A stretch of 64,000 nucleotides of DNA from Betaproteobacteria bacterium (GTDB taxonomy: Bacteria > Acidobacteriota > Vicinamibacteria > Vicinamibacterales > CAVVIG01): assembly GCA_050257855.1 (NCBI GenBank), contig JBLMXQ010000028.1, positions 241-64,240 of the forward strand, written 5' to 3'. The stretch's first letter is position 1. Each line of letters opens with the position of its first letter. A program made the position numbers and the translations under genes. Shown piece by piece: positions 1 to 31,702 of this stretch. The notes under the pieces are model-generated. The model was not told the origin of the DNA. It made no database searches and saw only the letters and a program-made list of their open reading frames with translations.

Positions 1-1
1 G

Positions 2-3000
2 TACCAGATGGTCGCTGCCGACGCGGACAACGATCCGCTGGCCTACTCGCTCACCCAGGCGCCGGACGGGATGACGGTTTCCGCCGGCGGCGTCATTTCG
101 TGGACACCGGCGACGGCCCAGATCGGGTCGCAGAGCGTCGCGGTTACCGTGAGCGACGGCCGCGGCGGCACGACCACCCAGTCGTTCACGGTCGTCGTCG
201 AACCGGGCATTACGGCTATCGACGCGACCCCTGCGCTGCTGCGGTTCTCGAGCGTCGGAGTGGATCGACCGCTGGCCGTGACGGCGCTCCGATCGGACGG
301 CTCGTCGATCGACGTGACTGCCTTGGACACGACCTACGAGTCGAGCAACACGTTCGTCGCGACGGTGAACGGCGGCGGCGCCGTCCACGCGGTCGCGAAC
401 GGAAACGCTACCATCACCGTTCACCACGGCTCTCTCACGGACACGGCCGCGGTGATGGTGGAAACCGGCGTCACGCTCGACTCGCTCGATCTGTCGCCGC
501 CGGCGGAGACGCTTCGCAGCGTTCCGGCATCATACGCGCTCACGCTGCGGGGCCACTTCTCGAACGGCGACGTGCGCGATCTGACCGCCGCGGCCGGCAC
601 CGTGTATCAATCCTCCAATCCGGCCGTCGCGACGGTGGATGCTACCGGACACGTGACCGCGACCGGTCCGGGCGATGCCGCCGTCACGGCCCGGACCGAC
701 ACGCTGACGGCCTCGGCCGCCGTGCACGTGTTCGTGAGCACCGGCGTCGGCTTCCTGCGCGGCGTCGCGTTCGACGATTCGAAGGGTCTTCCCCTCGCCG
801 GCGCGTCAGTCACGCTCGTCGCAGACGGCGGCGGCCCGCTCGCCCCTCCGACGACGACGACGGCCGACGAGCAGGGTCGATTCGCGGTCGAAGGCCGCGC
901 CGGCGACGCGATCGTGCGTATCGAGAAGGCAGGATTCACGAGTGTCGAGCGGAGCGCGCCGATTCCCGAGGGCAGCGCGGCGACACTGCTCGACGCGCGC
1001 CTCACGCCCGTCGACGCCCGGGCGAACACGATCGCGTCGGCCTTCGGCGGCGAGGCCGACGACACGACCCTCGCCTTCAGGCTGACAGTGCCGCCCGGCG
1101 GGCTTGCTGCCAACACGGATCTGCGCCTCACGCCGATCAGCGGTCAGGGTCTGAAGGATCGCCTTCCGTTCGGGTGGTCGCCCGTGGCTGCCGTCGATAT
1201 CTCGCCCGCTGGCCTCACGTTCTCGCAGACCGCATCGCTCGCCGTTCCGAACGCGGCGAGCCTCGCGGCGGGCGCCGGCGTCGTCGTCGCCACGTACGAT
1301 ACGTCGCGGCACGCCTGGATCGCCGTCGGAACCGCGCAGGTCAGCGGCGACGGCCGGTCGATCGTCGTGCCGCTCGCCGCCACCGGCCAGATCGCATGTG
1401 TCGCCGCCGACGACGCACCGTTCACGCCGGCCACACCTGCGATCGGCGACGTGCTGGGCGGCAGTCCGGGCGTCGCCCTGCCGGCTGATATCACGGCGAC
1501 CGGCACGGTCGTTCCCCGGTCCGCCCCGCCCGGGGACAAGGCGCGAGCGGTGGGACGGGTGCTGCTGCGCTCCACGGCCCCCCTGCCGAGCGGCACGGTC
1601 CTTCGCGCCAGCGTGACCGAGCGATTCGATCTGGCTGACCAGTCGCAGATCGTCCCGCAGCCGTTTGGGGAAGACATCGTTCTCTATTCGCGCGGACGGC
1701 CCACCGGTGACGGCATCCTGGGCGCCAGCTTCCCGATTACGCCTTCGCGGAGCTTCACGATCCAGGAACTGCTCACCGGTGTGGTGTCGGTCGACGTCAA
1801 CCCGCCGGCCGCCGGGACGACAGCGACGATCCTCGGAGCGGCGGGCGGCACAATCACGAATGCTTCGGGCGACACGCTGGAGATCCCGGCGTCGGCCCTC
1901 GCAGGCGATACGGTGTCCCAGCTTCGGCGCGAGGACGATCAGACGATTCTGCCGGTCCCGTCCGGATTCGACCTCGTGGCAGCGCTCTACGTGGACCTTG
2001 CCGGCGCCACGCTGGCACAGCCGGCGCGGCTCTCGATTGCCGCGCCCTCATCCGTTCAGCCGGGCGATCAGCTGCTTCTGGCGCTCGTCTTCCAGGACCC
2101 GGCCGGAACGCTTCGGCTCCGCATCGTCGGCGTCGGCGCCTTCGACGCCGGACGTATCGCGAGCGTGACCGGTGTTGGCACCCTCGGTTTCCAGGGCGTG
2201 ACAGCCGGCGGTCACTATCTCTTCCTCCGATCGCAACAGCCGGTCGGCTTCCTGGCTGGACGAGTCCTCGGGACCGACGGCACGACGCCGAAGGCGCAGA
2301 CGCTGGTTACTGCCGATACGACACCCTTCGCCGACGCCAGTTCAGCGAGCGGCGCATTCGTTGTCGCCGGGCTCGTCGGCGCCGACACCGCGCTCCGCGC
2401 GCTGGACACCCTGACGCATGATGCTGCGGCGCGGACGGTACACGTGAACACGCGCGACGAGGTCGTGGCGAGCGACGTCACGCTCGCCGTCACTGCGCTG
2501 ACGGTCATCTCCACCGCTCCAGCGGCGAATGCGACGAACGTGGCGCTCGATACCTCGCTCAGCATCGATTTCTCGGACGCGCTCGATCCGGCGAGCATCA
2601 GCGACGCGAGCGCCGCGCTGCAGACCGGCGGCGCCCCGGTCGCGATCCAGCAGACCCTTTCGTCCGATCGCCGCCGCCTCGTGATTCGTCCCTCGGCGCC
2701 GCTCCAGGGGAAATCGACGTACTCGCTGGCGCTCGCCGGCTTGAAGACGACGACCGGCCGGCCGCTCACCGGGTTCACCGCGCTCACGTTCACGACGCTC
2801 GATCCCTCCAGGCCGGCAGTCATCGATTCAGGGATCATCACCGCCGATCTGCCGGACCAGGACGGCTTCGTGCTGATTACCGGAGGGGCCGGCGCCGCGG
2901 AGGCCAGTTCGGCCGTGACGGCGACGAACCTGCGGACGCAGGAGACCGCCACGGTCCTGGCGGACGGCGATGGATCATTCCGCGTTCGAGTGTCCGCGCT

Positions 3001-5119
3001 GATCGGCGACGAGCTGTCGATCGGCCTGAACGACAGCTCCGGACGCGAGGCAACCATCTCGCTCGACCAGCTCAGGGGAGCCGACGGCACGACGACAGTC
3101 AGCGAGCGCGGCGGCAGCATCGCCGGCGCGCACGGCAGGCTCGGAACGATCCTGCCGCGGGCCCTCTCGCAGGCCGGGCTGTTCCGGATCGACGACCTCG
3201 CCGCCGGCGTCGCACTGGCCGCCCTGCCGGCCGGCTTCACATACGTCGATCAGTTCCACTTCTCCGCCGACGCGGCACAGTTCAACAGCCTTTCCGGGCT
3301 CACGCTGGCCGAAAGCCAGAACCGTTTCCCTGCGCAGTCGTCTTCGAGCGCTCCGTTCGTCGCCTCGGGACAGCTCACCGTTCCCGCTGATTTCCTCGTC
3401 AGCGGATCGCTGCGCTTCACGGCGACCGCCGTCGATCGGGGCGGCATCCGCCGATCGGCGTCGTCGTCGGTGGTCGTGGTGGCCTCGGGCGCCGATGGTT
3501 CGTCTGCGGAGAGCAGCCAGGCGGCCGACTTCCCGACTGTCTTCGTCGTGGCACCGAAGCAGGCCGTGCCGGGTCAGGCAGTGGAGACGAGCGCGGTCGC
3601 CCCGGCGGCGCGCGTCGATCTCGAGATCCCGGCGCCGGCAGGTCTCGATCCGGCAGCCACGCTGCTGCTCGTTCGGAGCACCACGGTCGACAATCAGCCG
3701 AAGCTGCTCGTCCTCGACGCGTTCAGCATCGTCGTGCGGGACGGCGTCACGCTGCTGCGCACGAGCGGCCGCGAGTTGCCCGGCATGTCGACGACCGGGG
3801 ACTACGCGGTCGTCGCGTCCAGCGATCCGATCTCGTTCGTGACGGGCCGGCTGAGCGGATCGACCGCCATCGCGTCGCTCGACAATTCACCGTTCGTTTT
3901 CCGGACCGACGGCCCCAATGGTTCGTTCGCCCTGCCGGCGCGGGCGGGACAACCCTTCTCGATCCAGTATCTCGATGCGTCGAGCGGCGCGGTCGTCGGG
4001 ACGTCGAGCGGCAACGCCCCGGCGACCGGCGGCGTCGATCTCGGCCAGCCGCTCGCTCCTCCAGCCTCCGGGCTGACGGTGACCGCCGACCCCGACGCTC
4101 ACGCCATCGTCGACATCGGCGAGCCGCTGACGTTCCACTTCTCCGAGCCTGTCGACGGACGCACGCTCGCCGGCGGCATCGTCGTGACCGACGGCGCCGG
4201 CGCACGCGCGATCGGATCGATCACCCTTGCCTCCGACGGGGCCACCGCAACCTTCAAGCCCTCGAGGCGCTGGAAATTCGGAACGACTTACCGCTGGGGC
4301 GTTGCGACCAGCGTGGTCGCCGTCTCTGGCGTGCACCAGACGCAGGCGGCCGCCGGCGCCTTCACGACGTTCGCGCCCACGGTCGTCGGCACGGCGGCGA
4401 TCGGAGCGGCGCACGACGTCGCGGTTGCCGGCGCGCTCGCCGTTGCCGCTACTGACGCCGGCCTGCTCACGATCGACGTGTCGTCACCGCTGGCGCCGGC
4501 GGTGCAGGGCCAGGTGCCGCTCGACGGCGGCGCGCATGGCGTCGCGCTGCTGCCCTCCACGACGTTCACCGATCGGCTGAATCAGACGCACGCCGGGACG
4601 TTCGCGACCGTCGCCGACGGCGGCGCCGCCGGCACCGGTCGCCTCGACGTCATCGACGTGACGACGGCGGCCGCGCCGGTCGGAATCGGATCAGCTCGCG
4701 TGAGTGCGAGCGGCGGCACGCCGAGTGCGGTCGCCCTCACCTCCGATCAGCGGGCGCTGGTCGGAATACAGGGCGTCGGCGTGGCAGCGGTCGGGATCGC
4801 CGGCGCCGTCCCGGCCGACTCGGGCAATCCCGCGAGCCCTGTCGCAGCCCGCTATCCATCCGGGGCGAACGAAGACATCAATCAGGCCGCCGTGCTCGGC
4901 GAACGCGTGCTGACGGCCGGCGCCGCCGGGCTGACCGTGCTGGACGCCGCGACGCTCACGCGAAGGGGCGGCGCGTCGACGGCCGGAAACGCTCAGGGCG
5001 TCGCCGTTCTCCCGGCGTTCTCGATGGACGTGAACGGCGACGGTACGATCGACGCTGCCGCGGAGACGTTCGATCTCGCCCTCGTCGCGAACGGCGCCGA
5101 TGGTGCGCTGCAGTTCTAG
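2..5119 (+). CDS. giant extracellular repeat protein, N-terminus cut by the window edge (1705 codons visible)
   Basis: The frame is open from the first full codon at nt 2. The ORF-track ATG at 8 is internal, because residues DADNDPLAYSL..GVISWTP already read as mid-domain. By-eye motifs (no HMM run): a cadherin-like/putative-Ig unit; two Big_2-like units (..NTFVATVNGGGAVHAVANGNATITV.., ..NPAVATVDATGHVTATGPGDAAVTA..); CarboxypepD_reg-like units (GFLRGVAFDD.., GFLAGRVLGTDG..); SbsA/Big_5-like units (..STAPAANATNVALDTSLSIDFSDALDP.., ..LTFHFSEPVDGRTL..); then LVIVD-like propeller repeats. Stops at TAG 5117-5119. Confidence 0.85.
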   Translation, partial: YQMVAADADNDPLAYSLTQAPDGMTVSAGGVISWTPATAQIGSQSVAVTVSDGRGGTTTQSFTVVVEPGITAIDATPALLRFSSVGVDRPLAVTALRSDGSSIDVTALDTTYESSNTFVATVNGGGAVHAVANGNATITVHHGSLTDTAAVMVETGVTLDSLDLSPPAETLRSVPASYALTLRGHFSNGDVRDLTAAAGTVYQSSNPAVATVDATGHVTATGPGDAAVTARTDTLTASAAVHVFVSTGVGFLRGVAFDDSKGLPLAGASVTLVADGGGPLAPPTTTTADEQGRFAVEGRAGDAIVRIEKAGFTSVERSAPIPEGSAATLLDARLTPVDARANTIASAFGGEADDTTLAFRLTVPPGGLAANTDLRLTPISGQGLKDRLPFGWSPVAAVDISPAGLTFSQTASLAVPNAASLAAGAGVVVATYDTSRHAWIAVGTAQVSGDGRSIVVPLAATGQIACVAADDAPFTPATPAIGDVLGGSPGVALPADITATGTVVPRSAPPGDKARAVGRVLLRSTAPLPSGTVLRASVTERFDLADQSQIVPQPFGEDIVLYSRGRPTGDGILGASFPITPSRSFTIQELLTGVVSVDVNPPAAGTTATILGAAGGTITNASGDTLEIPASALAGDTVSQLRREDDQTILPVPSGFDLVAALYVDLAGATLAQPARLSIAAPSSVQPGDQLLLALVFQDPAGTLRLRIVGVGAFDAGRIASVTGVGTLGFQGVTAGGHYLFLRSQQPVGFLAGRVLGTDGTTPKAQTLVTADTTPFADASSASGAFVVAGLVGADTALRALDTLTHDAAARTVHVNTRDEVVASDVTLAVTALTVISTAPAANATNVALDTSLSIDFSDALDPASISDASAALQTGGAPVAIQQTLSSDRRRLVIRPSAPLQGKSTYSLALAGLKTTTGRPLTGFTALTFTTLDPSRPAVIDSGIITADLPDQDGFVLITGGAGAAEASSAVTATNLRTQETATVLADGDGSFRVRVSALIGDELSIGLNDSSGREATISLDQLRGADGTTTVSERGGSIAGAHGRLGTILPRALSQAGLFRIDDLAAGVALAALPAGFTYVDQFHFSADAAQFNSLSGLTLAESQNRFPAQSSSSAPFVASGQLTVPADFLVSGSLRFTATAVDRGGIRRSASSSVVVVASGADGSSAESSQAADFPTVFVVAPKQAVPGQAVETSAVAPAARVDLEIPAPAGLDPAATLLLVRSTTVDNQPKLLVLDAFSIVVRDGVTLLRTSGRELPGMSTTGDYAVVASSDPISFVTGRLSGSTAIASLDNSPFVFRTDGPNGSFALPARAGQPFSIQYLDASSGAVVGTSSGNAPATGGVDLGQPLAPPASGLTVTADPDAHAIVDIGEPLTFHFSEPVDGRTLAGGIVVTDGAGARAIGSITLASDGATATFKPSRRWKFGTTYRWGVATSVVAVSGVHQTQAAAGAFTTFAPTVVGTAAIGAAHDVAVAGALAVAATDAGLLTIDVSSPLAPAVQGQVPLDGGAHGVALLPSTTFTDRLNQTHAGTFATVADGGAAGTGRLDVIDVTTAAAPVGIGSARVSASGGTPSAVALTSDQRALVGIQGVGVAAVGIAGAVPADSGNPASPVAARYPSGANEDINQAAVLGERVLTAGAAGLTVLDAATLTRRGGASTAGNAQGVAVLPAFSMDVNGDGTIDAAAETFDLALVANGADGALQF

Positions 5120-5440
5120 CGCGTGCCCGCCATGGGCGATCCCGTGCTGCTGTCCGTCGTGCACTTCACGAGCGAGACGACGAGCGTCGCGCTCGATGCG
5201 AACGAGCGGATCGCGTATGTCGGCCTGGGCGCGCGCGGCGTGGCGCTGGTCGACCTGGACGGCCCCGCCAGCGTGCAGCCGATCGATCTCGATCACGACG
5301 GCGTCGACGATCGGATCCTGGGCGTCATCGACACGCCGGGCAGCGCCGGACGGCTCGCGCTGGCGCTCGACCGGGGACTGGCGTTCGTGGCCGACGCGTC
5401 GGCCGGACTGACGGCCATCCAGCTCCTGCCGCCGCGAACC
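4415..5440 (+). other. LVIVD-like beta-propeller repeat region (about seven repeats) spanning the ORF1/ORF2 boundary; coordinates approximate
   Basis: Repeats read by eye: HDVAVAGALAVAATDAGLLTIDVSSPLAP; HGVALL..ATVADGGAAGTGRLDVIDVTTAAAP; SAVALTSDQRALVGIQGVGVAAVGI; AAVLGERVLTAGAAGLTVLDAATL; QGVAVLP..LALVANGADGALQF[TAG]RVPAMGDPVLL; TSVALDANERIAYVGLGARGVALVDLDGPASV; GRLALALDRGLAFVADASAGLTAIQL. The fifth unit contains the TAG at 5117-5119. Confidence 0.55.
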
Positions 5441-8400
5441 TCGTTCACGAGCCTCGAGCGCGACCCGATCGCGGGCCGCACGGGCGACGAGCAGAGCATC
5501 CTGACGAGCGGCGTCGCCTTCACCTCGGATCAAGCGATCGAGGTCTCGGTCAACGTGGCCGCCTCTTCACGCGACCGTCTCGTGCTGCGGATCGACGAAC
5601 GGCCCGATCCGACGGGCACGCCCCGGCTGTCGTTCGCCGACGGGGCCCTCAGCACGCCGCTCGAGCCAGGACTCAACGCGTTCTCGATGCCGATCGAGCC
5701 CGCGGCCGCGGCCGGCGGCAGCACGGTGGCGCTCGTCGTGCAGACAGTAGCGGGCGCGACCGTCGCGCGGCAGACGTTCCGGTTGGCGCCGTTCGATGCT
5801 TCGACCGCGGCGATTCGATCGCTGGTCGTGGCGCCCGATGCGGTGAGCCTCGATCTGAATCAGCAGTTCGCGCAGCTCTCGATCGCCGGAGTGCTCGACG
5901 ACGGCACGACGATCAACCTGACAGGCGAACCCGCGACCCGGTTCGCCATTTCGAGCGATGCCGTCGCCACGGTGAACGCCAGCGGTCTCGTGCTGGCGAA
6001 CGCGGGCGGCCATGCCATCGTGACGGTCACACACGGCGGGCTGGCCGCAGAGGTGCCGGTGAGCGTCGACCTGCTGGCCGCCGTCGTCGGATTCGAGACG
6101 ACGGAGCCGTTCGTCACGCTGACATCGGCCGGTGACAGAAAACCGCTCTCCATCGACGTGAAGTTGTCGGACGGCGGGCTCGAACCGTTCTCGAGCGGTC
6201 TCGGGACGTTCGAGACGAGCAATCCTTCGGTCGCGACGGTCGACGCTGCCGGCAACGTCGTGGCGGTCGGAGAAGGAACGGCTCTCATTACGGTCCGGTC
6301 CGGAAACGCGGTCGCTGAGGTGCACGTGGCGGTCGAGTTCCGGACGCCCCCGGTCGTCTCCTCGATCGCACTGGCGGCGCCGGCAACTGTTCCAAGCGAC
6401 AGCGGCCAGGCGACGTTGTCGGCTCGCGTGACCGGAACCGGGTCTCTCGAAGGTCTGGCCGTCACGTTCGCGCTGCAAGGGCAGACCGGCGCCTCGTCGA
6501 CCGCACAAACCGATTACGACGGAATCGCCGCCGGGATCCTCCGGGGGCTGCACGCGCCCGGCACGTTCACCGTGCAGGCCTCGGTCGTCAACCCTGCCGA
6601 CGGAACGACGTTGTCGGCTGCAGCGACGGTCACCGTCGAACGCGCAGGCGGGGACATCGAGCCCAATGACACCGTCGCGGGAGCGATCCCGCTCGCCCCC
6701 GACACACCTGTCAGCGGCAACCTCGGCCCGGGTGATCTCGTCGATGTCTACGCCACGACCTCGTCTACGCCTGGCACGCTGACGGCCGCGCTGACGCTGC
6801 CCGTCGACGCGGATCCTGCGTCGCTGCGCGTGGTGTTCCTCGCCGCCGACGGCAGCGAGCTCGCGCGGACGACGCCATCCAGCCATCGCCAGAATTTCAG
6901 GCAGGACGTCGCGGCGGGCAGCGCGTTCGTCGCCGTCGAGTCGACCGGGCCTTCGGCGGCGTATCAGCTCGAGACGCGAATGCTCCAGGGTCCGATCGGC
7001 ATCGCGTCGGTCTCTCCGTTGTCCGGCGGACCGGGTACGCCGGTCGCCATCGTGGGCACCGGTTTTTCGCTCGATCCGACCGAGACCCGGGTCCTCTTCA
7101 ACGGAGCCCTGGCCAAGGTCGTGTCCGCCACGCCGACGCGCATCGATGCGGTCGTCCCGGCCAACGCCATCGACGGCCCCGTCCGCGTCGTGAGCGCTGC
7201 GATGGCGGCTGACGGCCCTGTCTTCACGGCAGGCGCGACGAGCCGCCCGCCGATCACGCTCGCGTCGACCAGGAGCGAGAACCTGCGGTTCGATCCCGTC
7301 GCGCATCTTCTCGTCGACGCCACCCGACTGCTGATCTTTGCGGATCCGGTGGTCGACCGGACGCAGATCGAAGCACTCGTCGGCGGTCTCGGCGGAACGA
7401 TCATCGGAGCGACGCCGGCGCTCAATGCGTACTACGTCGAGTTCGCCGCCAACCAGACGATCGCGGGGCTGGCGGCCATCAGGCGCCAGCTGGCCCAGAG
7501 CCCGCTCGTGCTGCACGTCCTCCGGGATACGTTCGCCACTCCAGCCGGCCAGGCCATCGACCTGCGCGACAAAGCAGGAGTGTGGCCCGGGACGGACCTT
7601 CCCAGAGCGCTTGCGTTCGACCTCTCGAAGATCTTCGAAGCGGTCGACCTGATCCGGAGCACGCGTCCGTTCACGGACAGCACGAAGCTGGCGCCGGTCC
7701 ACGTGGGCGTAATCGACACGGGATTCATGCCGTTCAAGGCCAGCGAATTCCAGGCTCAGGGCCAGACCGTCGTCACGCTCTTCAGGTCGGCAGCCAACGT
7801 CGGCCCGTTCTCCTCCGGCAACCTCGGCCTGATCGATCCCGTCGGGCACGGCACGGAGGTGACTGGGATCATCGCAGCCACGAACGACGGCGTCGGCGCC
7901 AGCGGGGCCCTGAACGACCTCTTCAGGCCTGGCGAAGCGCCGTTCCAGGTGCTCGTGTACGGCGTGGCCGATCCGCTGTCCGGCAGGCTCTCGTCGGCGC
8001 AGATCTTCGCGGCCCTCGCCGCTCTCGCGGCTCGAGGCGATGTCGACGCCGTGAACATGAGCTTCGAAACCAAGTACACCGGCCAAACACCCGAGTTCAC
8101 CGACGACAGTCAGGCGTTCCTCGACGCGTTCGCGTTGTTCGGCGGCCGCACGGCGCTCGTCGCGGCGGCAGGAAACGACGGCGTCGATGCGCAATTCGTC
8201 GTGCCGGCCGCGCTGTCGAAGCGAACCGCCGCAGTCATTACTGTCGGTGCAGTCGCGGTTGCCAACCTCGACGGGAGCGGGGAAGGCGCCGACGCCCGCG
8301 CGATCTTCAACGACACGGGGGGCGACGTCGAGAACGGCGACGTCCCGTGCCGCGCCGGCACCGCGACGCTGGAGTCGAACTGCGGCTCCGTCGTGACGCT

Positions 8401-17089: not shown

Positions 17090-17096
17090 TGCTCGA

Positions 17097-23000: not shown

Positions 23001-26000
23001 CTCCGCGGCGTCGGCAGTGTGGCGGCGACCGTCGTCTCCTCGTCGGGCACCGGCACCGTCGCGGGCGCGAAGGTGACGCTGCAGGCGCTCGGCGCGTCGG
23101 GAACGACACGCCCGGGCCCGCTGGCGACGACGCTGACGGCATTCACCGACGCCCAGGGCATCGCGACGTTCCCGAGCGTACCCGTCGGCGACTTCTCCGT
23201 CCGCGCGGAGGCCGCCGCCCTCGCCGGCATTGGCAACGGCACCATCGCCGCCGCGGGCGCCAGCGTCGCCGTTCAGGTGCAGCTCGGCGCGTCGGGAACG
23301 GTCGCCGGGCGCGTGCTCCTGTCGGACGGCGTCACAGCCGCGGCCGGCGCGTTCGTCACGCTCCGATTTCAGTCTCAGAGCACCCTTCAGACCGGCGTGC
23401 TGCAGGTCACCACCGACCTGACCGGTGCCTTCGAATTCGCGGGCATCCCGCTCGGCCCGTTCTCGGTGTCGGCGATCGAGGTCGTGACGAGCGGCGTCCG
23501 CTCGGCGAGCGGCACGATTGCGGGCGGCGGTCAGCGTGTCGACCTCGGCACGCTGATTCTCGACAACGCGGCGCCGCGCGTGGTCGACGTCACGCCCGCC
23601 GATCGAAGCGGGAACGTGGACGCCCGGAGCCCCATTGTCGTGACGTTCAGCGAGCCGATTGACGCGAACGCCATCTCAACCGCCGTGGGCGGCAACGTCG
23701 CGCTGCTCGAAGGTTCGAGCCCGGTTCCGCTGGGCGCCGCCGAGTTCTCCGGGGACGGGCTCACGCTGACGCTTCGGCCGACGCGCGATCTCGCCAGCGG
23801 CGCGCTCGAGACCCTCACCATCCGCGGCGCACCGGATGGGCCGAAGGACCTGTCGGGATTCACGATGCTCGATCCCGTCCTCAGCACGTTCACGGTGCGC
23901 GATTCGGTGCCGCCGACCGTCGTGTCGGTATCGCCGCCCGCAGGCGCGGTGCAGGTCGGGCCGGATGCGGTCGTGCGCGTGACCTTCTCCGAGCCCGTGC
24001 TCGGGGCGACGGTGACGATCCACGACGACACCAACGCGCCGATCGCCGGGACGATCACGCTCGCCGGCGGCGGGACCGTCGCGATCTTCACGCCGACAGA
24101 CTTCCTGCGGACCAACGCGGGCTATACGGTCACCGTGTCGAACGTGTCCGATACCGCCGGGAATCCACTGGTCGGCGGCGGCTTCAGCTCGGCCTTCGCC
24201 ACCGTCGACACGATTGCGCCGGTCATTGCGAATGTCGAAGTCGTCGGCACGCCGCGTGCGGGCGCCTCCATCACCCTGCATCCCACGATCGCCGCTGCCG
24301 ACGTCCAGCGGGTCGAGTTCACGCTCGGAGAGGCGGCGCCGGCCGTCGCGCTCCAGTCGCCGTTCGATGCGGCGCTCGCGCTTCCGAGCGGCGTCCCCGC
24401 CGCCACGGTGACGGCGGTCGCCTTCGACCAGGTCGGCAACCGTTCGAACCCGTTCCAGCTCACGGTAGCGATTCAACCGAACCAGCCTCCAGTCGTCACG
24501 CTGACGAACGTCGCCGGCGCGACCACGGTCGGCCAGGGGCAGACGCTCGCGTTCCAGGTGCACGCGACGGACGACGACCCGCTGGCGAAGATCTTCTTCA
24601 GCGCGGTCGGCGCGGTGGCTGTGAGCCAGGTCCAGGCGGCCGCACCCGGTCAGACCGACTTCAGCCAGCAGTTCTCGATCACCATTCCCGCCGGCGCGCC
24701 ATCGAACTCGACCATCACCGTACAGGCGGCCGCCACCGACAGCGCCGGCGGCCAGAGCGTGCCGGCGGCCATCACCCTGAACGTCCGCGACGCCGCGCGT
24801 CCGACGGTCGCCGTGCAGTCGCCGGCCGACAACTCCCTGGTCCTCGCGGGCCAGAACGTCGACGTCGTCGTGGACGCGGCCGACGACGTGGCGCTGTCGA
24901 GCGTGGCGCTGGTGTGCAACCCGGCGCTGGCAGGCTGCGAGTCGCGGGCCATCGCCCCGGGCGTGGCATCGTCGCACCAGACGTTCACCGTGGTCCTGCC
25001 CCCGTCGCTGCAGGCGCCGCAGACGGTGACCTTGTCGATCGTGGCCACGGACACGTCGGGCAACACCGGCACAGCGTCGCGCATCCTGCGCCTGGCCGAC
25101 ACCGTCAGTCCCACCATCACGGCCCTCGAGTCGGCGACGGGCTCGACGCGCGTCGTCCCGGGCGGCACGGCGACGCTGCGCGCAACGGTCGCGGACAACG
25201 TCGGCGTCACCGCCCTGGAGTTCTCGACCCAGGGCGCCGTCACGACGAACGGCGTCTCGCCGGTCGCCCCGGCCGTCGTCAGCGGCCAGGCCGTTCTGTC
25301 GATTCCGATTCCAGCGGATGCGCCGAACGGCCAGACCGTCACCGTCGGCGTCCGCGCGCGCGACGCTGTGAACAACGCGAGCGAACCGGCCTCTCTGACG
25401 CTGACGGTCGGCGACTCGGCGGCGCCGATCCTGACGGTTCTCGAGCCGGCCGACGGCACCACGGCGGCGCCCGGCGGAAGCGTCACCGTGCGCGTCAGCG
25501 CCACCGACGACGTCGGGGTCGCGCGGTTCACCCTGACGGCCAGCGGCGCGTTCAGCTTCAGCGATGGCCGCGACATCTCGCCGGCGACGACGCCCGCCGC
25601 GGCGACGTTCGTCGTGCCGGTACCGGCGGGCGCGCCGGCAGGTCCGTTCACGCTGACGCTCGCCGCCATCGACACCAGCGGCAACCCGAGCGCTCCGGTC
25701 GCACGGGCGCTCAGCGTCACCGACGTCGTGGCGCCACAGGTGCAGGTCGTCGCCCCGGCGCAGGACGCCGCGCTCGATCCGCGCAACCCGGTTGCCGTGA
25801 CCGTCACGGCGACCGACGCGGTGGGCGTCACCGCAATCGACTTCGGCGCGAGCGGGAGCGTGTCGGCTTCGGACACGCGGTCCGTCCAGCCGGCGGCGAC
25901 GTCACGGACCGAGATCTTCACGGTCAACGTGACGCCGATTCCGGCGGCCGGCGGGACGCTGACGCTGAACGCGACGGCGCGCGATGCCGCGGGAAACAAC

Positions 26001-28613
26001 GGCACGGCGCCCCCGGTGACCATCCGGCTGACCGACGTCGTCGCACCCGACGTCGTCTCCACCGCTCCCGCGGGCGGCGCGACCGGGGTCGATCCGCAGA
26101 CGGCCATCGTCGCCAGGTTCAGCGAGCCGATGAATCCGGCGACGCTGAACGCGGCGTCGATTCAGCTCCAGCGGGCCGGCGCGGCCGTGCCGGCGTCGCT
26201 GGCCGTCAGCGGGAACGACGACGTCGTGACGCTGACGCCCACGGCGCAACCCCTGGCGCCCAACGCGACGTTCACCCTGATCGTCACGACCGCGGCCACC
26301 GATCGCGCGGGCAATCCGCTCGCGGCTGTCCGCACGTTCACGTTCACGACGGCGTCGCCGGACACGACACCGCCGACGGTTGCCTCGATCGTCCCAGCCG
26401 ACGGTTCGGCCGGCGTGTCGCTGGCCACGAGCATCACGGTGACGTTCAGCGAGGCGATCGACCCGTCGACGGTCACCGCGCAGTCGTTTGCGGTTCACAG
26501 CGGGACGACGCCGATCGACGGGACGTTCAGCTTCCTCAACGGCAACAGCGCGGCGCAGTTCACGCCGGCCGCGCCGCTCCCGTCTGACGCCGACGTCACG
26601 ACGGCGCTCACGAGCGGCATCACCGACCTGTTCGGAAACGCGCTCGCCGCCGCCGACGGCTCGCCGCTGACGTCGCCGCTGACGTTCACGTTCCACACCG
26701 GGCAGTTCAGCCTGACGAGTCCGGCCGGACCGGACGTCGTCGAGAACAGCACCGTCGTCCTCGAAGCCCGCGCCAGCGCGAGTCTCGGCGCCACGAGCGT
26801 GGTGTTCACGGTCAACGGCGCCGCCAGGCCGGCCGTGTCGGGCCCGCCGTTCACCACGACGCTTGCCGTCGGCTCGGCAGCTTCGACGCCCACGCTGGAC
26901 ATCGTCGCGAGCGCGCGGAACGCGGGCGGGACGGAAATCGCACGGGACGAGCGCACGGTCGACGTCGTGGTCGGGTTGAAGGTAGCGCCGACGTTCACCG
27001 GCGCGCCGCTCGGCGGTACTCTGGCGCTGACTTTCTCGGTCTCGAGCGCGCTCCCCGACGATCTCCCGATCGCGCTCGCGGCCGGCGATCCGGCGATCGT
27101 CGCCTTCCCGGCGAACCCGGTGATCCTGCCGGCCGGGCAGACAAAGGTGGACGCCACCATCGCCGGCCTGGCGACCGGGGCAACGGCGGTCATCGGCAGC
27201 TCGAGCCACGGCACCGCCGCGGCGATCGTCGCGGTCAGCCCGGTTCAGCCCGGCCAGACGCTGACGCCGGCTTCGGCCCCGGTCGGCGCGTCGCTCTCGA
27301 ACGCGCCGTCGGGAATCGTCGTCGCGCGTGCCGGCACCGGCCAGACGGTGCATCTCGATCTCCTTGGAGCGCCTGCGACCGCGGACACGCCGGTCTCGGT
27401 GGTCTCGACGAACACGGCGGTCGCAACCGCCACTGCGACGACGATTGCGACAGGTCAGACCGCCACCGACGTGCAAATCACGCCGGTCGCCGACGGCGTC
27501 GCCACGATCGTCGTCCGCGTCGGCGACGACGTTCGCAGCCTGACCGTGTTCGTGGGGACGCTGCCGGCGAACCTCCTCCCGCTGATCACGGCGAGACCGG
27601 CCGGGCTGGCGATCTCCAACGCCCCGGGCGCTGGCCAGCTCGTCGCGAGCGCCGGCCGTCAGATCACGGTCAGCGTGCCCCTTCTGACCGCGCCGGCCGG
27701 GGCCGACGCGGTCGTGACCGTCTCGAGCGACAACCCGGCCGTCGCGACCGCCGCCGCTGCGCCGATTCCGGCCGGCCAGACCGCCGCAACGGTGACGGTC
27801 ACGACCGTCGCCGACGGCATCGCGACGCTGACGCTCCGCGCCGGCGCCGACGTCCGTGCGCTGAAGCTGTTCGTCGGCACGCTGCCGCCGAACGTCACGC
27901 CGATCCTGACCGCGAAGCCCGTCGGCCTGAGTCTGGCGTCGCTGCCGAGCCTCGGCCGCCTGTTTGCCCCGCTGGGCGCTTCGCGCACGATCGGCGTCCG
28001 CCTGTTCGACTCGCCGGCTGCCTCCGACATCATCGTCACGGCCACGACCAGCGACCCGAACGTGGCGAACGTCGTCGGACCGGTCGTCGTTCACGCCGGC
28101 GAGCAGATCGCGAACATCGAGCTCGCCACCGGTTCGGGCGGAACCGCCACCCTGACGATCGAGGCCGCGGGCGTCAGGCGCGAGATGACGCTGGTGGTCG
28201 GCGGCAATCCCACGCCGGCCACGACGCCGCCGGTCGTCGCGGCGCCGGCCGGCGTGACGGTCGTTCCGAATCCGTCAATCGGGAGCGTGTTCGGTCAGCT
28301 CGGGACGCCCAGCGCCGCGACGCTCGGCATTCCGCTGCTCGGCGCGCCGGCGGCCGCGGTGGTATCAGTGACGGTCACCAGCAGCAACCCTTCGATCGTC
28401 GCCGTGGGCGGCGGCGCGACAACGACGATTACCATCGGCGCGGGCGAGCAGGTGCTGCAGCTGCCCATCGACATCAGCGGCACCGAAGGAGCGGCGCTCC
28501 TCACGATCGAGTCTGGCGGCGAGCGGCGCGAGCTGCTCGTCGTCGTCGGCAACCCGCCCGCGTCAGCGATCCCGGCGGTCACCGCGCCGATTGTCGGCGT
28601 GCGCATCGGATGA
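17097..28613 (+). CDS. giant secreted repeat protein (3838 aa): signal peptide, ~925-aa N-terminal region of unknown family, ~13 CarboxypepD_reg-like units, SbsA/Big_5-like and cadherin/Ig-like arrays, five C-terminal ~105-aa repeats
   Basis: ATG 17097 lies 7 nt after the upstream TAG; the ORF ends at TGA 28611-28613. The N-terminus MMRKPGWIGAAAASFVVASSVCLEAQQ is signal-peptide-like. It is a long uninterrupted ORF with protein-like repeat structure. Confidence 0.9.
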   Translation: MMRKPGWIGAAAASFVVASSVCLEAQQAPLPPLTRLRFDIIGVRLVVDPPALTVPKNLATQINTSLVLPPGIGDEARDAILALTDGAQVEAELRGPSLPPTRIAVVPGKPIPIPPLAIPGDYFLDGIRLEKGGQTVLDATTSDGRPASTIPIRVINEVLVASVTSKPLSLDDIRSKGIVIDEKNFSAVNFQVAFNIDGKPFTINAPAVLPTPELLKTAPDRQVLVQQISAMNRTLSAALTTLPPEFDRPGLNFSIAALPFFPVDDAGSDPGFTTPPITGLIVIPGNVAFLNQFFSAMLLVANVAPDGTPLVLQDVSGTVTLPTGADHVAGTFDQPGDDPLRLARVDGAGVQPTVPVAQRGPDGKLGTADDVFVIPPQKQGEGEFLIEGLKEGSSQFDIAITATLVGLPSGPVVLQGQAAGAVFVRNPTFAVTLAHPRRVLSGEPYSVYATVTNTSKTPANLVSVNLDPHSITGAQLLSDPTVTFDSIPPGQSAVAKYSLRAQLTGEVTFASFTGDAALGGGIRLETGVDERGVALSANAIVLPQSTDALPASLVAAAQRVLGQAFSVATAPAEALPDGVLFVKRQTVIDRGIELAEAGERVQFGEPLSRVVQDLLLDWLGNASFDEGFDQILRETDAGSALLSEFAAIVAPQAVGGQALDYQRQFAQTTAARDGHLSAIGAAEGGTAAPTMTITRASGGGVGEVEGVPTSSLESGALLELSANSSAASLAIVARPETDHYTIEIDAPASGLYDLGVVVPVGPGDLRQFRFAGIPLDAGGRAQVEVDVPAGSGATLSIDRDGNGVSDGTAAADLVDVTAGPPQLVAARQLASSTLDPGSASDPATYGLLVGALFDAPVTQVSAELKSNYSIDSNAVIGTQLQHNGRLVYLYLQKPIGGLTPRSLTVNGVADSRGNVLPNQTQPIVMSLTDGAHVFGQVRDAGGAGVGGGILELTISSVNGSSFNVAAIRTDGSGGFDFDFVPRVGTFTITAQHPVTSDLATISARIRGAGEQLLVNPTFLGRGTVRGRVIGPDGATPVANILVALIPGSVLGTSGFQARTNALGEFTFTEVPVGVFTLSAADGAGAFGQATGLIARGGDAISQDLGLVTQPQEDGRLLGRVFQSDGATPAAGFTVYVGTYHRDDGTIAAVDQTETDATGSFAFSRTLPPAGYDVVAVDPASGQLGAAHADVVARTTSSVSIVLEAVGTVEGVVFNGRGEPVKGAVVAGGVALVTTDANGLFRIDGVPAGTKTIEAGDPVTRRRGSADVTVLPGQTVSASITLESRATITGRVLDANGNPVPGASVRIPHIGGFDFVIANNQGVFTFPDLPLGDYLIEAPGPSKESLISFMQSNGIDPRTAFTSGDAPDGAGDPTIPPPASDQNAVLAAYQQAVQTFFSVPDSVLDALPMAPLGGFGWNKVSLFQDAATIVADVKFLPQGTVSGRTLDAAGNPTGAVVRVSSLRVTNTGAPGFGELSRVNTDPATGAFSFGGIARFDLATFQTAAVRAGDLTLEAANPFSPIHPQFRGQLSTATPDLADVVLQFPAAGDTNGTISGRVFQPDGVTPAPAGTQVAIGFGDLAVTTDADGTFRSLLPIPAGTYTVTARQPNGLRGQTMAVVPAGGNVDVQMRVLGLGVVTVTVKRSNGTPVGNAAVSLLRGSFPADRAQGTTDQNGVARFVNISEGPFSVEVQEAVTGLGGRASGNILRDGDLAVPVVLAASGVVTGTFLPATGTTPIAFAQIALASNGLQAYASTDANGRFAFAAIPVGPFTLDGFDPATNRRGRATGTLQFEGQAVDVTILEAPRGTVTGVVVTADGVTPVPAARVSLRGSSFVETALQATALADGSFRFDGVPAGTFTLEATDPVSGFSGAAKGQIAFEGDTAAVNVPLAPFGSIHATVFAVDGQPVPNASVSAAGRQAAVDTNGEFTFEHLALGSYQVVARSLADSNDGGDATVKLDAPNQVAEAAIHLRGVGSVAATVVSSSGTGTVAGAKVTLQALGASGTTRPGPLATTLTAFTDAQGIATFPSVPVGDFSVRAEAAALAGIGNGTIAAAGASVAVQVQLGASGTVAGRVLLSDGVTAAAGAFVTLRFQSQSTLQTGVLQVTTDLTGAFEFAGIPLGPFSVSAIEVVTSGVRSASGTIAGGGQRVDLGTLILDNAAPRVVDVTPADRSGNVDARSPIVVTFSEPIDANAISTAVGGNVALLEGSSPVPLGAAEFSGDGLTLTLRPTRDLASGALETLTIRGAPDGPKDLSGFTMLDPVLSTFTVRDSVPPTVVSVSPPAGAVQVGPDAVVRVTFSEPVLGATVTIHDDTNAPIAGTITLAGGGTVAIFTPTDFLRTNAGYTVTVSNVSDTAGNPLVGGGFSSAFATVDTIAPVIANVEVVGTPRAGASITLHPTIAAADVQRVEFTLGEAAPAVALQSPFDAALALPSGVPAATVTAVAFDQVGNRSNPFQLTVAIQPNQPPVVTLTNVAGATTVGQGQTLAFQVHATDDDPLAKIFFSAVGAVAVSQVQAAAPGQTDFSQQFSITIPAGAPSNSTITVQAAATDSAGGQSVPAAITLNVRDAARPTVAVQSPADNSLVLAGQNVDVVVDAADDVALSSVALVCNPALAGCESRAIAPGVASSHQTFTVVLPPSLQAPQTVTLSIVATDTSGNTGTASRILRLADTVSPTITALESATGSTRVVPGGTATLRATVADNVGVTALEFSTQGAVTTNGVSPVAPAVVSGQAVLSIPIPADAPNGQTVTVGVRARDAVNNASEPASLTLTVGDSAAPILTVLEPADGTTAAPGGSVTVRVSATDDVGVARFTLTASGAFSFSDGRDISPATTPAAATFVVPVPAGAPAGPFTLTLAAIDTSGNPSAPVARALSVTDVVAPQVQVVAPAQDAALDPRNPVAVTVTATDAVGVTAIDFGASGSVSASDTRSVQPAATSRTEIFTVNVTPIPAAGGTLTLNATARDAAGNNGTAPPVTIRLTDVVAPDVVSTAPAGGATGVDPQTAIVARFSEPMNPATLNAASIQLQRAGAAVPASLAVSGNDDVVTLTPTAQPLAPNATFTLIVTTAATDRAGNPLAAVRTFTFTTASPDTTPPTVASIVPADGSAGVSLATSITVTFSEAIDPSTVTAQSFAVHSGTTPIDGTFSFLNGNSAAQFTPAAPLPSDADVTTALTSGITDLFGNALAAADGSPLTSPLTFTFHTGQFSLTSPAGPDVVENSTVVLEARASASLGATSVVFTVNGAARPAVSGPPFTTTLAVGSAASTPTLDIVASARNAGGTEIARDERTVDVVVGLKVAPTFTGAPLGGTLALTFSVSSALPDDLPIALAAGDPAIVAFPANPVILPAGQTKVDATIAGLATGATAVIGSSSHGTAAAIVAVSPVQPGQTLTPASAPVGASLSNAPSGIVVARAGTGQTVHLDLLGAPATADTPVSVVSTNTAVATATATTIATGQTATDVQITPVADGVATIVVRVGDDVRSLTVFVGTLPANLLPLITARPAGLAISNAPGAGQLVASAGRQITVSVPLLTAPAGADAVVTVSSDNPAVATAAAAPIPAGQTAATVTVTTVADGIATLTLRAGADVRALKLFVGTLPPNVTPILTAKPVGLSLASLPSLGRLFAPLGASRTIGVRLFDSPAASDIIVTATTSDPNVANVVGPVVVHAGEQIANIELATGSGGTATLTIEAAGVRREMTLVVGGNPTPATTPPVVAAPAGVTVVPNPSIGSVFGQLGTPSAATLGIPLLGAPAAAVVSVTVTSSNPSIVAVGGGATTTITIGAGEQVLQLPIDISGTEGAALLTIESGGERRELLVVVGNPPASAIPAVTAPIVGVRIG
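19880..23570 (+). other. array of ~13 CarboxypepD_reg-like beta-sandwich units in ORF3; bounds approximate
   Basis: Unit starts read by eye: HVFGQVRDAGG, GTVRGRVIGPDGATP, GRLLGRVFQSDGATP, GTVEGVVFNGRGEP, ATITGRVLDANGNPVPGA, GTVSGRTLDAAGNP, GTISGRVFQPDGVTP, VVTVTVKRSNGTP, GVVTGTFLPATGTTP, GTVTGVVVTADGVTP, GSIHATVFAVDGQP, GSVAATVVSSSGTG, GTVAGRVLLSDGVT. Confidence 0.65.
26975..28610 (+). other. five tandem ~105-aa repeats of unrecognised family at the ORF3 C-terminus; bounds approximate
   Basis: Recurring pattern ..[VT]V[ST]S[DST]NP[AS][VI]A..A..PI.AGQTA..V.[IV]T.VADG[IV]AT[IL].[LV]R.G.D.R.L.[LV]FVGTLP.N., for example VVSTNTAVATATATTIATGQTATDVQITPVADGVATIVVRVGDDVRSLTVFVGTLPAN and VSSDNPAVATAAAAPIPAGQTAATVTVTTVADGIATLTLRAGADVRALKLFVGTLPPN. 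Confidence 0.6.
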
Positions 28614-28632
28614 AGGTGAAGAGGAAATAGCC

Positions 28633-29943
28633 ATGAACACGTGGTGGACGAAGAACGCAACCATCGGAATGCGGATCGCGGCGACGTTCGCCGCGGCGGC
28701 GTGCATTCTCCTGACGGCGCCCGCGTTCGAAGCGCAGAGCCTCGACATCTGCGGGTGCGCGAGCGTGCCCAATCTTCAACCGTTCGACACGTCGAACCCG
28801 GCGACGTATCCGCCAGGAACGTCCGATAGCGGGTTCAACGGCACGCTCACGCTGCCCCTGCCGCCGGACGGCGTCTTCAGGTTCAGCAGCTTCGCCGTTC
28901 AGAACAGGAACGTGACGTTCGTCTCGAACGCCGCGAACACCCCGGTCACGATCCTGGTCGCCGGAGACGTGTCGTTGAGCGGCACCAACTGCTGCTTCTC
29001 CTTCACTGTTTCAGGCAGCAGCGGAAGCAGCGGGACCTCGTCGCTGGCGGGTGTCGGAGGACTCGGTGGCCCGGGTGGCTTTCGCGGTGGCGACGGCGCC
29101 TCACAAGGCATCAACGGCGCCGCTATCGGCGGTACCGGCTTCGGTCCGGGCGGCGGCGGCGGCGGAACGGCGGCGCCGTTCACGAACGCCGTCGGCGGCA
29201 CTTTCCTCGGCCTGCCCGAGCTGATTCCGCTGGCCGGCGGCTCAGGCGGCGGCGGCGGCTCGTCGAACGGCACGAGCACGAGCTGTTCGGGCGGCGGCGG
29301 CGGCGGCGGCGGCGGGGCCCTGCTCATCGCGGCCAATGGAACACTGACCATCACGAACTACCAGCTGTTCTCCGACGGCGGCAGTGGCGCCGGCGGAGGC
29401 AACGGGAGCTGCGGGTCGGTCGGAGGCGGCGGATCCGGCGGCGCGATTCGGTTGGTCGCGAACCGCCTCGTTCAGGCCGCAATCGCCAACATCTTCGCGC
29501 GGGCAGGAGGCAACGGCGGCGCCGCTGACGGACGAATCCGCCTCGAATCGATCGACACGTCCGCCCAGACGCAGTTCGGCGCGACGCCGCCTGCGCTGCG
29601 AATCGTCGGGCCGACGCCGCTCGCGAACCCGATCAATCCGACCGTCACCATCACGTCCGTCGGCGGCTCTGCCGTGCCGGCGGTGCCCCAGGGCACCTTC
29701 GGCGCAATCGACGTCGTGCTCCCGGCGCCCGGCGCGACGCCGGTGCTCGTTGCGACGACCGGAGTGCCGAGCGGGACGACGGTAGCGATCTCGGTGAAGC
29801 CGCGCATCGGCGGCCCAGCGATCTCGCAAACCGTGCCGCTCACCTCGTGCGATACGGCGGGCGCGTGCAGCGCGACCGCGACCTTCGACCTGGCTGCCGG
29901 CGCCTACGTCGTGGAGGCGCAGGCCACGTTCCAGGTGCAGTGA
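28633..29943 (+). CDS. secreted glycine-rich protein (436 aa), predicted parallel beta-helix with poly-Gly tracts and a C-terminal Ig-like region
   Basis: ATG 28633 is preceded by GAGGA (28621-28625) and lies 19 nt after the ORF3 stop. Signal peptide MNTWWTKNATIGMRIAATFAAAACILLTAPAFEAQ. Gly tracts (GPGGGGGGT, GGSGGGGGS, a run of at least eight Gly) alternate with GGALLIAANGTLTITN / GGAIRLVANRLV strands, which recall the GGA[ILV] repeats of beta-helical surface proteins. The ORF-track start at 28591 lacks these features. Confidence 0.8.
   Translation: MNTWWTKNATIGMRIAATFAAAACILLTAPAFEAQSLDICGCASVPNLQPFDTSNPATYPPGTSDSGFNGTLTLPLPPDGVFRFSSFAVQNRNVTFVSNAANTPVTILVAGDVSLSGTNCCFSFTVSGSSGSSGTSSLAGVGGLGGPGGFRGGDGASQGINGAAIGGTGFGPGGGGGGTAAPFTNAVGGTFLGLPELIPLAGGSGGGGGSSNGTSTSCSGGGGGGGGGALLIAANGTLTITNYQLFSDGGSGAGGGNGSCGSVGGGGSGGAIRLVANRLVQAAIANIFARAGGNGGAADGRIRLESIDTSAQTQFGATPPALRIVGPTPLANPINPTVTITSVGGSAVPAVPQGTFGAIDVVLPAPGATPVLVATTGVPSGTTVAISVKPRIGGPAISQTVPLTSCDTAGACSATATFDLAAGAYVVEAQATFQVQ
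29290..29313 (+). repeat. in-frame (GGC)7 GGG trinucleotide microsatellite encoding poly-Gly; shorter (GGC)4-5 runs near 29149-29163 and 29245-29256
   Basis: Read directly: tcg ggc ggc ggc ggc ggc ggc ggc ggg gcc, in the ORF4 frame. Confidence 0.9.
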
Positions 29944-30750: not shown

Positions 30751-30809
30751 CCTCAACTGCCTCGCGCGGCGCGTCGGCCGGCCACGAGTGACCGCCGCAC
30801 ATTCCGGCG

Positions 30810-31676: not shown

Positions 31677-31702
31677 CATACTCTGCAGACCTGGAGGTCA
31701 TC

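Follow-up and report, generated by a model that had tools for sequence, protein, structure and literature searches.

A conserved cassette of giant, putatively exported proteins in a Vicinamibacterales genome

A block of very large genes was analyzed in a 64-kb stretch of DNA (hereafter the window), which corresponds to positions 241 to 64,240 of contig JBLMXQ010000028.1 in assembly GCA_050257855.1, labelled Betaproteobacteria bacterium and placed by GTDB in the Vicinamibacterales (Acidobacteriota). The block covers window positions 2-29943, contains 9,967 codons and consists of three genes, here named A, B and C, the first of which is interrupted by one stop codon. Gene A has at least 5,695 codons, gene B encodes 3,838 amino acids (aa) and gene C 436 aa. 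Together they form a widespread, uncharacterised trio of giant exoproteins with two large orphan families, the N-terminal module of B and the whole of C, and literature searches found no description of this A-B-C cassette. The reading that we prefer, with chances we put at about even, is that A-B-C is a conserved three-gene cassette for the envelope or surface assembly of Sec-exported giant proteins of the beads-on-a-string type.

Vicinamibacterales and their relatives in the Acidobacteriota rank among the most abundant bacteria of soils and, to our knowledge, almost nothing has been established about how they construct their cell surface. The cassette represents about 30 kb of coding capacity and includes two protein families without a characterised or structurally solved relative. 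If it is one apparatus with an exchangeable arm, it would describe how degradative enzymes or toxins are displayed on long stalks, and would give names and testable roles to thousands of giant open reading frames (ORFs) annotated as 'hypothetical' in soil metagenomes.

Gene structure of the block and the in-frame stop of gene A

An earlier note on this DNA had described four same-strand ORFs separated by 3, 7 and 19 nt and comprising about 10,000 codons. The ORFs were recovered at 2-5119, 5123-17089, 17097-28613 and 28633-29943, with the same intervals and a total of 9,967 codons. The GC content of the window is 70%, and high-GC DNA here yields spurious long ORFs, such as an opposite-strand one of 1,238 aa. 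The in-frame GC content at third codon positions (GC3) of the four ORFs is 0.84-0.90, and this, together with their Pfam domains and hundreds of homologues, indicates that they are real genes and not chance high-GC ORFs.

The claim that the four ORFs are separate genes was not upheld. ORF1 and ORF2 share one frame and are split only by an in-frame TAG (5117-5119, + strand) plus one codon; ORF2 has no signal peptide, and the repeat pattern in which ORF1 ends runs on into its start. With the 900 aa spanning the junction as query, four relatives (P0121-P0124) were identified that cover it without a break, all with Tyr at the position of the stop in the alignment ..NGADGxxQF-Y-RxPxxGDPVLLSVV... 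The corresponding codon was TAT in L004 and TAC in L005 (the loci of relatives are numbered L002-L037, and many come from error-prone long-read assemblies). Because of the shared frame and the Tyr in these four relatives, ORF1 and ORF2 were regarded as one giant coding sequence, gene A (2-17089, + strand), which is truncated at its 5' end by the window. About 270 N-terminal codons are missing, as estimated by comparison with L005. The source contig measures 64,766 nt, so no more than 766 nt fall outside the window. Exact look-ups gave no record of ORF2 or ORF3, and ORF4 was present only on a Logan contig of 3.9 kb.

Since 10 of the window's 23 credible genes end in TAG, the genetic code is the standard one; recoding or readthrough at 5117-5119 was therefore rejected as the default, TAG being an ordinary stop here. 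The TAG lies inside a region resembling a LVIVD/FG-GAP-type beta-propeller, away from any domain boundary, and represents a nonsense allele or else a base-call error. An exact-DNA search of metagenome contigs for the ORF1/ORF2 junction (TAC versus TAG) found nothing. The 3,988 codons after the TAG show no further lesion and a GC3 of 0.88. Unless the TAG is a base-call error, the genome would make only a truncated N-terminal fragment of A of about 1,970 aa, without the protease described below. As a lesson for annotation, neighbouring giant ORFs may be one gene split by a stop codon or an assembly error.

Conservation of the B-C pair and of the gene order

Synteny was scanned in one genome per GTDB species with the C-terminal domain of gene C as query, which yielded 26 loci. 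Most of them were Acidobacteriota, Vicinamibacterales or Luteitalea, and the others came from metagenome-assembled genomes (MAGs) labelled Rokubacteria, Myxococcota, Gammaproteobacteria (including a Sedimenticolaceae chromosome) and Nitrospiraceae. In 22 of the 26 loci the gene immediately before C was a B homologue, almost always at a distance of 17-150 nt, and this adjacency held at 39-70% identity under several phylum labels. In L035, too, the B-like gene is followed by a distant C-like gene rich in glycine. Such conserved adjacency usually reflects functional coupling, and its persistence across deep divergence favours functional coupling of B and C.

The four exceptions were L019, which lacks upstream sequence, L026, a partial second copy, L031, a marginal match, and L009. 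In L009 (7197-10408) an A-like N-terminus, corresponding to aa 5-705 of gene A, adjoins a partial C without B, which is either a rearranged variant or a mis-assembly.

The A-B-C order recurs in the Vicinamibacterales relatives L004 and L005. Their gene A displays the same order of Big_2, Big_5, TIG and Peptidase_S8 domains and is fragmented by frameshifts in these long-read assemblies. The co-occurrence of the genes in relatives, which the earlier note had proposed to check, was thus found both as the complete order in these two loci and as the B-C pair. Downstream of C, conservation is confined to close relatives. In one subclade of Acidobacteriota (L015, L017, L018, L019 and L020) a conserved ORF of about 170 aa directly follows C; it is absent from the window.

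Gene B

Gene B (17097-28613, + strand) starts with a Sec signal peptide (MMRKPGWIGAAAASFVVASSVCLEA followed by QQ after the predicted cleavage site). The signal peptide is followed by a conserved N-terminal module of about 900 aa (17175-19871, + strand), which has no Pfam, NCBIfam or PDB sequence relative. A total of 91 homologues of this module were detected, with labels including Verrucomicrobiota, Myxococcota, Nitrospirota, Deferrisomatales and Thermoanaerobaculia, and their alignment revealed the invariant residues Q292, E387, H435, E443 and D629. Wherever 9 kb of flanking sequence was present, the B homologue was a single unbroken ORF of 3,000 aa or more (20 or more loci). Insertion sequence (IS) elements with DDE_Tnp_1 or Transposase_mut domains split the B homologues of L032 (13293-16320) and L034 (14605-15942).

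The AlphaFold2 (AF2) model of the N-terminal module has a predicted local distance difference test score (pLDDT) of 79 and a predicted TM-score (pTM) of 0.49, and consists of beta-sandwiches strung in a chain, with a bundle of six helices at aa 544-669. Foldseek searches of PDB with this model returned generic chains of immunoglobulin-like (Ig) domains at TM-scores of about 0.1, among them HYDIN, alpha-2-macroglobulin/TEP and transglutaminase. The module does not qualify as an alpha-2-macroglobulin or TEP, since no CxEQ motif and no A2M Pfam match were found and the Foldseek TM-score was about 0.09. Homology between this module and the conserved core of gene A was also considered and rejected, as blastp and hhalign found only a common CarboxypepD_reg-type domain. 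No match to the module or to gene C was found in a plasmid collection.

The N-terminal module is followed by a long array of beta-sandwich domains (19962-26696, + strand), identified by Pfam and self-repeats. It consists of about 14 NOMO-like CarboxypepD_reg domains and then an Ig array of Big_5, Big_7, Big_3_3 and CopC-like domains. The CarboxypepD_reg part (aa ~960-2160) matched NOMO2 (9c7v) with an E-value of 4.8e-21. The C-terminal part (27084-28610, + strand) contains 4-5 copies of a repeat of about 110 aa without a Pfam match, and gene B ends in the conserved tail PAVTAPIVGVRIG. A motif of this tail, P..AP.VG[VI].[VI], is kept across phyla and recurs at each boundary of the C-terminal repeats, and the last residues in relatives read ..VVVGxPPxxxxPxVxAPxVG[VI]x[VI].

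Gene C

Gene C (28633-29943, + strand) encodes a protein with a signal peptide, 20% Gly and nine Cys, and had no match in Pfam, NCBIfam or PDB. The alignment of the family displays an invariant D[IL]CGC after the signal peptide, a CC pair, poly-Gly loops and the C-terminus EA(R/Q)ATFQxx, and the CGC, the CC pair, the poly-Gly and the C-terminus persist in the most distant homologues. The family is large: at 90% identity, more than 2,393 clusters counted as matches, and at 50% identity at least 326 clusters matched with E<=1e-30. Its named members are 'hypothetical proteins' of Vicinamibacterales MAGs. Some members (P0342, P0355 and P0361) are fused to an N-terminal Kelch beta-propeller, and one protein of 5,597 aa carries five copies of the C-like glycine-rich solenoid segment. 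A promoter and terminator scan around gene C was uninformative.

The confident AF2 model of gene C (pLDDT 84.6, pTM 0.80) displays long paired strands and a C-terminal beta-sandwich, and its Gly-rich stretches are predicted with pLDDT>90 without regular secondary structure. Gene C is thus predicted by this model to be a beta-solenoid plus a C-terminal beta-sandwich. Foldseek found no match in PDB with E<0.01, the weak top ones being phage tailspike beta-helices; in BFVD there were four matches with E<=0.001, but their TM-scores of 0.2-0.3 were uninformative.

Domain composition of gene A

Gene A begins with Ig-type domains (14-1003, + strand), identified by Pfam and internal repeats as He_PIG/Big_9, two Big_2 and CarboxypepD_reg. 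The conserved core (722-3301, + strand; aa ~241-1100) is common to giant proteins encoded upstream of B homologues elsewhere; it includes a segment of about 500 aa without a Pfam match and then a Big_5 domain (nt 2489-2797). An orphan segment of about 420 aa and a second Big_5 follow and lead to the propeller-like region (4370-5491, + strand), which spans the TAG and is contiguous in relatives. This region contains two DxNxDGxxD calcium-type loops (aa 1676 and 1762).

Past the propeller-like region, two Big_2 domains and a TIG domain precede a subtilase domain, Peptidase_S8 (7697-8599, + strand; ORF2 aa 859-1159), which matched PF00082 with 66.9 bits against a cut-off of 21.8 (E 2.4e-18). Its catalytic triad is intact, with Asp2572 (VIDTG), His2616 (GHGTE) and Ser2827 (GTSFAAP) in the numbering of the fused protein, and the domain occurs at the same position in gene A of L004 and L005. 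Judged from its sequence, the S8 domain is the sole candidate for a maturation activity in the cassette.

The S8 domain is followed by an orphan region of about 1,780 aa (8600-13951, + strand) without a PDB sequence relative, in which self-similarity revealed a duplicated module of about 490 aa (nt 10982-12451 and 12512-13951). Gene A then ends in an array of about eight DUF11/DUF7507 repeats (Pfam and NCBIfam) and an orphan C-terminal domain of about 175 aa (13859-17086, + strand). The C-terminal 196 aa had no family match in Pfam or PDB. Gene A of L004 and L005 ends at about residue 3700-4050 of the window protein and lacks the C-terminal extension of about 2,000 aa, which includes the DUF11 array and the second 490-aa module.

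Most of the domains named in the earlier note (Big_2, Big_5, CarboxypepD_reg, TIG, Peptidase_S8 and DUF11) were recovered with Pfam, which added He_PIG/Big_9 and DUF7507. The LVIVD repeat of the propeller-like region is a marginal match, with 20.4 bits against a cut-off of 20.2. The YVTN propeller was not found, its region within the long orphan part matching PD40/WD40 at E ~0.04 only, and the PPC and lamin-tail domains had no Pfam match at E<=0.1. The orphan regions remained without known families in Pfam, NCBIfam and PDB; their extent, given as more than 2,800 aa, proved to be larger and amounts to about 4,400 aa, including the 900-aa module of B and all of C.

Variable proteins in the position of gene A

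Five distant loci with a B homologue were examined (L032, L033, L034/35, L036 and L037), and in four of them an A-like giant protein with the common core is encoded upstream of B. The core was detected by tblastn in L032 (25% identity, E 2e-36), L034 (31%, E 9e-45) and L036 (29%, E 2e-35), and also in L033. The distal parts differ. The protein of L032 has 2,247 aa with PKD, and a 326-aa ORF lies between it and B; that of L034/35 has about 3,000 aa with Glucodextran_B; that of L036 has 4,592 aa with PKD/Big_7. A parvulin-type peptidyl-prolyl isomerase (PPIase) with a Rotamase_2 domain is encoded between the A-like and the B-like giant genes of L036 (9153-10004). A faint dockerin match was seen in the A-like protein of L034. 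In L037 no giant A gene was found upstream of B, its place being taken by a 248-aa ORF.

In L033, a Limisphaera MAG (GCA_025057755.1), the protein upstream of B (1-9828) has 3,979 aa with Big_5, DUF6531 and an RHS/YD-shell. It aligns to aa ~816-1066 of gene A, the Big_5 region, and the locus ends upstream of it. The position of A can therefore hold an Rhs-type polymorphic toxin. Since the part alignable to A precedes DUF6531 and the RHS/YD-shell, as analyzed here the arrangement suggests modular exchange of the distal part of A, as in polymorphic toxin systems. Gene A of the window differs from Rhs/YD toxins in that RHS repeats, a recognisable toxin tip and an immunity gene are all absent.

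Export and anchoring

B and C carry Sec signal peptides, and a signal-peptide-like start was seen on A in L004 and L005. The earlier note, which had reported no recognisable export partner, had overlooked the signal peptides of B and C. A, B and C have no transmembrane helix beyond the signal peptide, their cysteines occur in pairs, and no thioester CxEQ motif is present.

The absence of known export and anchoring signals reported before was largely borne out in the window, where no C39 component of a type I secretion system (T1SS), barrel of a type V system (T5SS), C-terminal domain of a type IX system (T9SS), PEP-CTERM, LPXTG, sortase or exosortase was found. With Pfam and NCBIfam there was no HemolysinCabind or repeats-in-toxin (RTX) match in A, B or C and no Por_Secre_tail or TIGR04183-type match. 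Autotransporter, ShlB and POTRA matches were absent from A, B, C and their neighbours. PEP-CTERM is missing from the C-termini of A, B and C, and a regular expression for the motif was negative across the whole window.

The conclusion that the block has no anchoring partner has to be modified, because in three relatives a small PEP-CTERM protein is encoded directly beside the cassette, and the flank upstream of A lies outside the window. In L004 this protein (5305-5826, 173 aa) is located directly upstream of A and scored 26.1 bits against a cut-off of 20.7. In L035 (21898-22497, 199 aa) it directly follows the C-like gene, scored 26.7 bits and has a weak cohesin match; in L032 (1212-1928, 238 aa) the score was below the threshold and the motif is visible. 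From their sequences, these small neighbours are the best lead for an exosortase-dependent anchoring. The genes upstream of A in L004 and L005 encode a pair of extracytoplasmic function (ECF) sigma and anti-sigma factors, a TPR-CHAT protein or the PEP-CTERM protein.

Two transport clusters of the window were considered as partners of the cassette and rejected: an HlyD-ABC-MacB/FtsX cluster (42780-48172), 13 kb downstream of the cassette, and an efflux operon of the resistance-nodulation-division (RND) type (56572-62156) encoding an AcrB-like protein, a membrane fusion protein (MFP) and an outer membrane efflux protein (OEP). Both are of ordinary efflux type, and neither stands beside the cassette in L002-L005 or the other loci. 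In the stretch 42780-52049, the gene for an HlyD-type MFP is followed by those for an ATP-binding cassette (ABC) ATPase, a MacB_PCD/FtsX permease of 800 aa and another ABC ATPase; next come genes for a sigma-54 activator, a histidine kinase and a response regulator. In L002 a PadR-linked MacB-like permease lies 3 kb from gene C; it is not syntenic with the cluster of the window.

Comparison with known systems

As a whole, the cassette resembles a locus for giant Ig-repeat adhesins or exoenzymes, and it is not of the T1SS/RTX, autotransporter, T9SS, PEP-CTERM, alpha-2-macroglobulin or Rhs type. LapA, SiiE, BapA and the RTX adhesins are likewise proteins of several thousand residues with tens of Ig-like domains that form long rods and are presumed to be extracellular. 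However, these adhesins have no Sec signal, carry C-terminal RTX repeats and a T1SS signal, and have ABC, MFP and TolC genes alongside, whereas the cassette has N-terminal signal peptides, no RTX repeats and no syntenic T1SS.

Giant-gene loci of Omnitrophota contain large unannotated stretches, in some cases S8 domains, Rhs-like features and a Rotamase_2 PPIase, and have a conserved locus of more than 10 genes resembling a type II secretion system (T2SS) or type IV pili (T4P) upstream and PilZ genes downstream (10.1101/2023.11.21.568195). The cassette is similar in its giant genes, unannotated stretches and S8 domain, and L036 shares the Rotamase_2 PPIase. It differs in that no T2SS/T4P-like locus or PilZ was found in the window or upstream of A in L004 and L005, and it has a conserved B-C pair and a different domain set. 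In Apilactobacillus kunkeei, Giant1-5 are consecutive same-strand genes for extracellular proteins of 3,000-8,000 aa (PMC12863079). This organism is a Gram-positive Firmicute, and its giant proteins have other domains, no detected homology to the cassette and no equivalent of gene C.

The CarboxypepD_reg array of gene B is comparable to the CarboxypepD_reg/transthyretin-like array of NOMO, the rod of the BOS complex (9c7v). NOMO is a eukaryotic, membrane-anchored protein of about 1,200 aa in the lumen of the endoplasmic reticulum, whereas gene B has an unrelated 900-aa N-terminal module, extra Big_5/Big_7 arrays, no transmembrane anchor and a dedicated partner gene. Gene C shares GGAI/GGAL and FxxN-like motifs and the solenoid-like strands of its model with beta-helix proteins such as chlamydial Pmp and phage tailspikes. 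However, it had no Chlam_PMP or autotransporter match in Pfam, the Foldseek matches had E>0.02 and TM-scores of about 0.14, and its poly-Gly loops, invariant N-terminal CGC, CC pair and C-terminal beta-sandwich are features of its own. The model, a solenoid plus sandwich, is also not the barrel of a T5SS.

Proposed arrangement and alternative explanations

The three genes probably form one operon. In the arrangement that we propose, B would be the scaffold or stalk, in which the N-terminal module is joined to about 25 CarboxypepD_reg, Big_5 and Big_7 beta-sandwich domains that would form a rod of more than 100 nm, ending in the conserved C-terminal repeats. C, almost always encoded 17-150 nt after B and for this reason taken as its partner, would be a disulfide-bonded, Gly-rich solenoid present in stoichiometric amounts and might serve as a cap or adaptor at the C-terminal end of B. 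A, with its conserved N-proximal core and a distal part that varies up to the Rhs/YD type in the Limisphaera MAG, would on this ground be an exchangeable functional arm for degradation, binding or antagonism. In the window this distal part comprises two propeller-like regions, the intact S8 subtilase, the duplicated orphan module and the DUF11 array. Crossing of the outer membrane and attachment would be encoded outside the cassette.

The multi-component surface fibre suggested in the earlier note is in keeping with this insofar as the co-occurrence and the signal peptides fit a linked extracytoplasmic assembly, with three components and not four. Nothing specific was found for an S-layer-like apparatus: A, B and C have no SLH match; Big_5 domains, which are Ig domains of the SbsA type, do occur, and there was one weak match of the C-terminal repeats of B to an Ig domain of an S-layer chain (4uid, E 0.0084). 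A stronger version, which we consider quite unlikely, is a fibre-assembly system spanning phyla, in which C would capture the conserved C-terminal strand and repeats of B, perhaps by a donor-strand or cap-type mechanism, the A core would dock exchangeable tools and PEP-CTERM would provide the tether. If true, it would be a new modular display of giant enzymes or toxins in diderms without T1SS, T5SS or T9SS.

Several points weigh against the proposed assembly. No outer-membrane translocation route was found, and no dedicated secretion system is linked to the block. The physical association of A, B and C, the rod geometry, the surface location and the anchoring route are what we infer. The adjacency of PEP-CTERM proteins comes from three loci only, in phyla rich in such proteins. 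Because of the interruption of gene A, this organism may lack a fully functional cassette. The order of the cassette genes is not absolute (L009), and the giant A gene is missing upstream of one B paralogue (L037). Furthermore, MAG labels can be wrong, some being odd (for example 'Bifidobacterium' and 'Acidimicrobiia'), and error-prone long-read assemblies with fragmented giant genes limit precise comparison.

The giant proteins might instead be independent adhesins or exoenzymes that are clustered without forming a joint apparatus, exported by Sec and released by a general pathway such as T2SS. The variable A position and the absence of A upstream of one B paralogue would agree with this, as would the existence of consecutive giant surface-protein genes elsewhere, for example in A. 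kunkeei (PMC12863079). The B-C adjacency with tiny gaps at 39-70% identity, under several phylum labels and with changing downstream genes, argues against it, as does the A-like core upstream of B in four of five distant loci, and we regard this explanation as unlikely, though one to be taken seriously. A polymorphic effector or antagonism system, with B and C as delivery scaffold and A as an exchangeable toxin or lytic effector against competitors or prey, appears quite unlikely. It would account for the Big_5, DUF6531 and RHS/TEN_YD-shell of the Limisphaera protein and for the hypervariability, seen even between close relatives, of the C-terminal part of A; moreover, a link to predation has been drawn for giant proteins of Omnitrophota that have S8 and Rhs-like features (10.1101/2023.11.21.568195). 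However, the Rhs case is one locus, no immunity-like small gene after A, toxin tip, type VI or VII secretion or contact-dependent inhibition components were found in the window, and the DUF11, Ig and propeller content fits polymer binding or degradation equally well.

A location in the periplasm, with the proteins acting as envelope spacers like the NOMO rod or as a protease trap like alpha-2-macroglobulin and not as surface fibres, is improbable in our view. In its favour, the proteins carry Sec signal peptides only, with no linked partner for export across the outer membrane; NOMO2 is matched by the CarboxypepD_reg array, and alpha-2-macroglobulin/TEP chains are among the weak Foldseek matches to the N-terminus of B. 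But TM-scores of about 0.1 denote generic Ig chains, neither a thioester CxEQ motif nor a lipobox is present, rods of 25-40 domains far exceed the periplasmic width, and S8, propeller and DUF11 domains typically belong to extracellular proteins. Finally, the TAG at a conserved Tyr in the middle of the propeller and the IS elements interrupting B homologues in L032 and L034 could be signs of a decaying pseudogene locus without current function in this genome. This is highly improbable, as there is a single lesion in 9,967 codons which could be an assembly error, the 3,988 codons past the stop are intact with their high GC3, and B and C are intact.

Other genes in the window

An FGE-sulfatase gene, encoding a formylglycine-generating enzyme-like protein without an obvious signal peptide, is located 100 nt after C (30043-30750, + strand). 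It was rejected as a partner of the cassette since it is not conserved beside C in relatives. The following stretch (30750-33530) has a lower GC content (0.66-0.67) and no convincing genes, its ORFs being without Pfam match, and is closed by a tRNA-Pro(CGG) (33453-33529, - strand); it could be the remnant of an integrated element.

Two adjacent radical-SAM genes are located beside a transporter gene of the major facilitator superfamily (37730-39614), with an ORF for a MarR-type regulator near them (39547-40575), and may represent a small modification or biosynthesis cluster. Further downstream, the stretch 53867-62156 encodes a 900-aa protein with an M14 carboxypeptidase domain, followed by the RND operon, which is complete, on the opposite strand.

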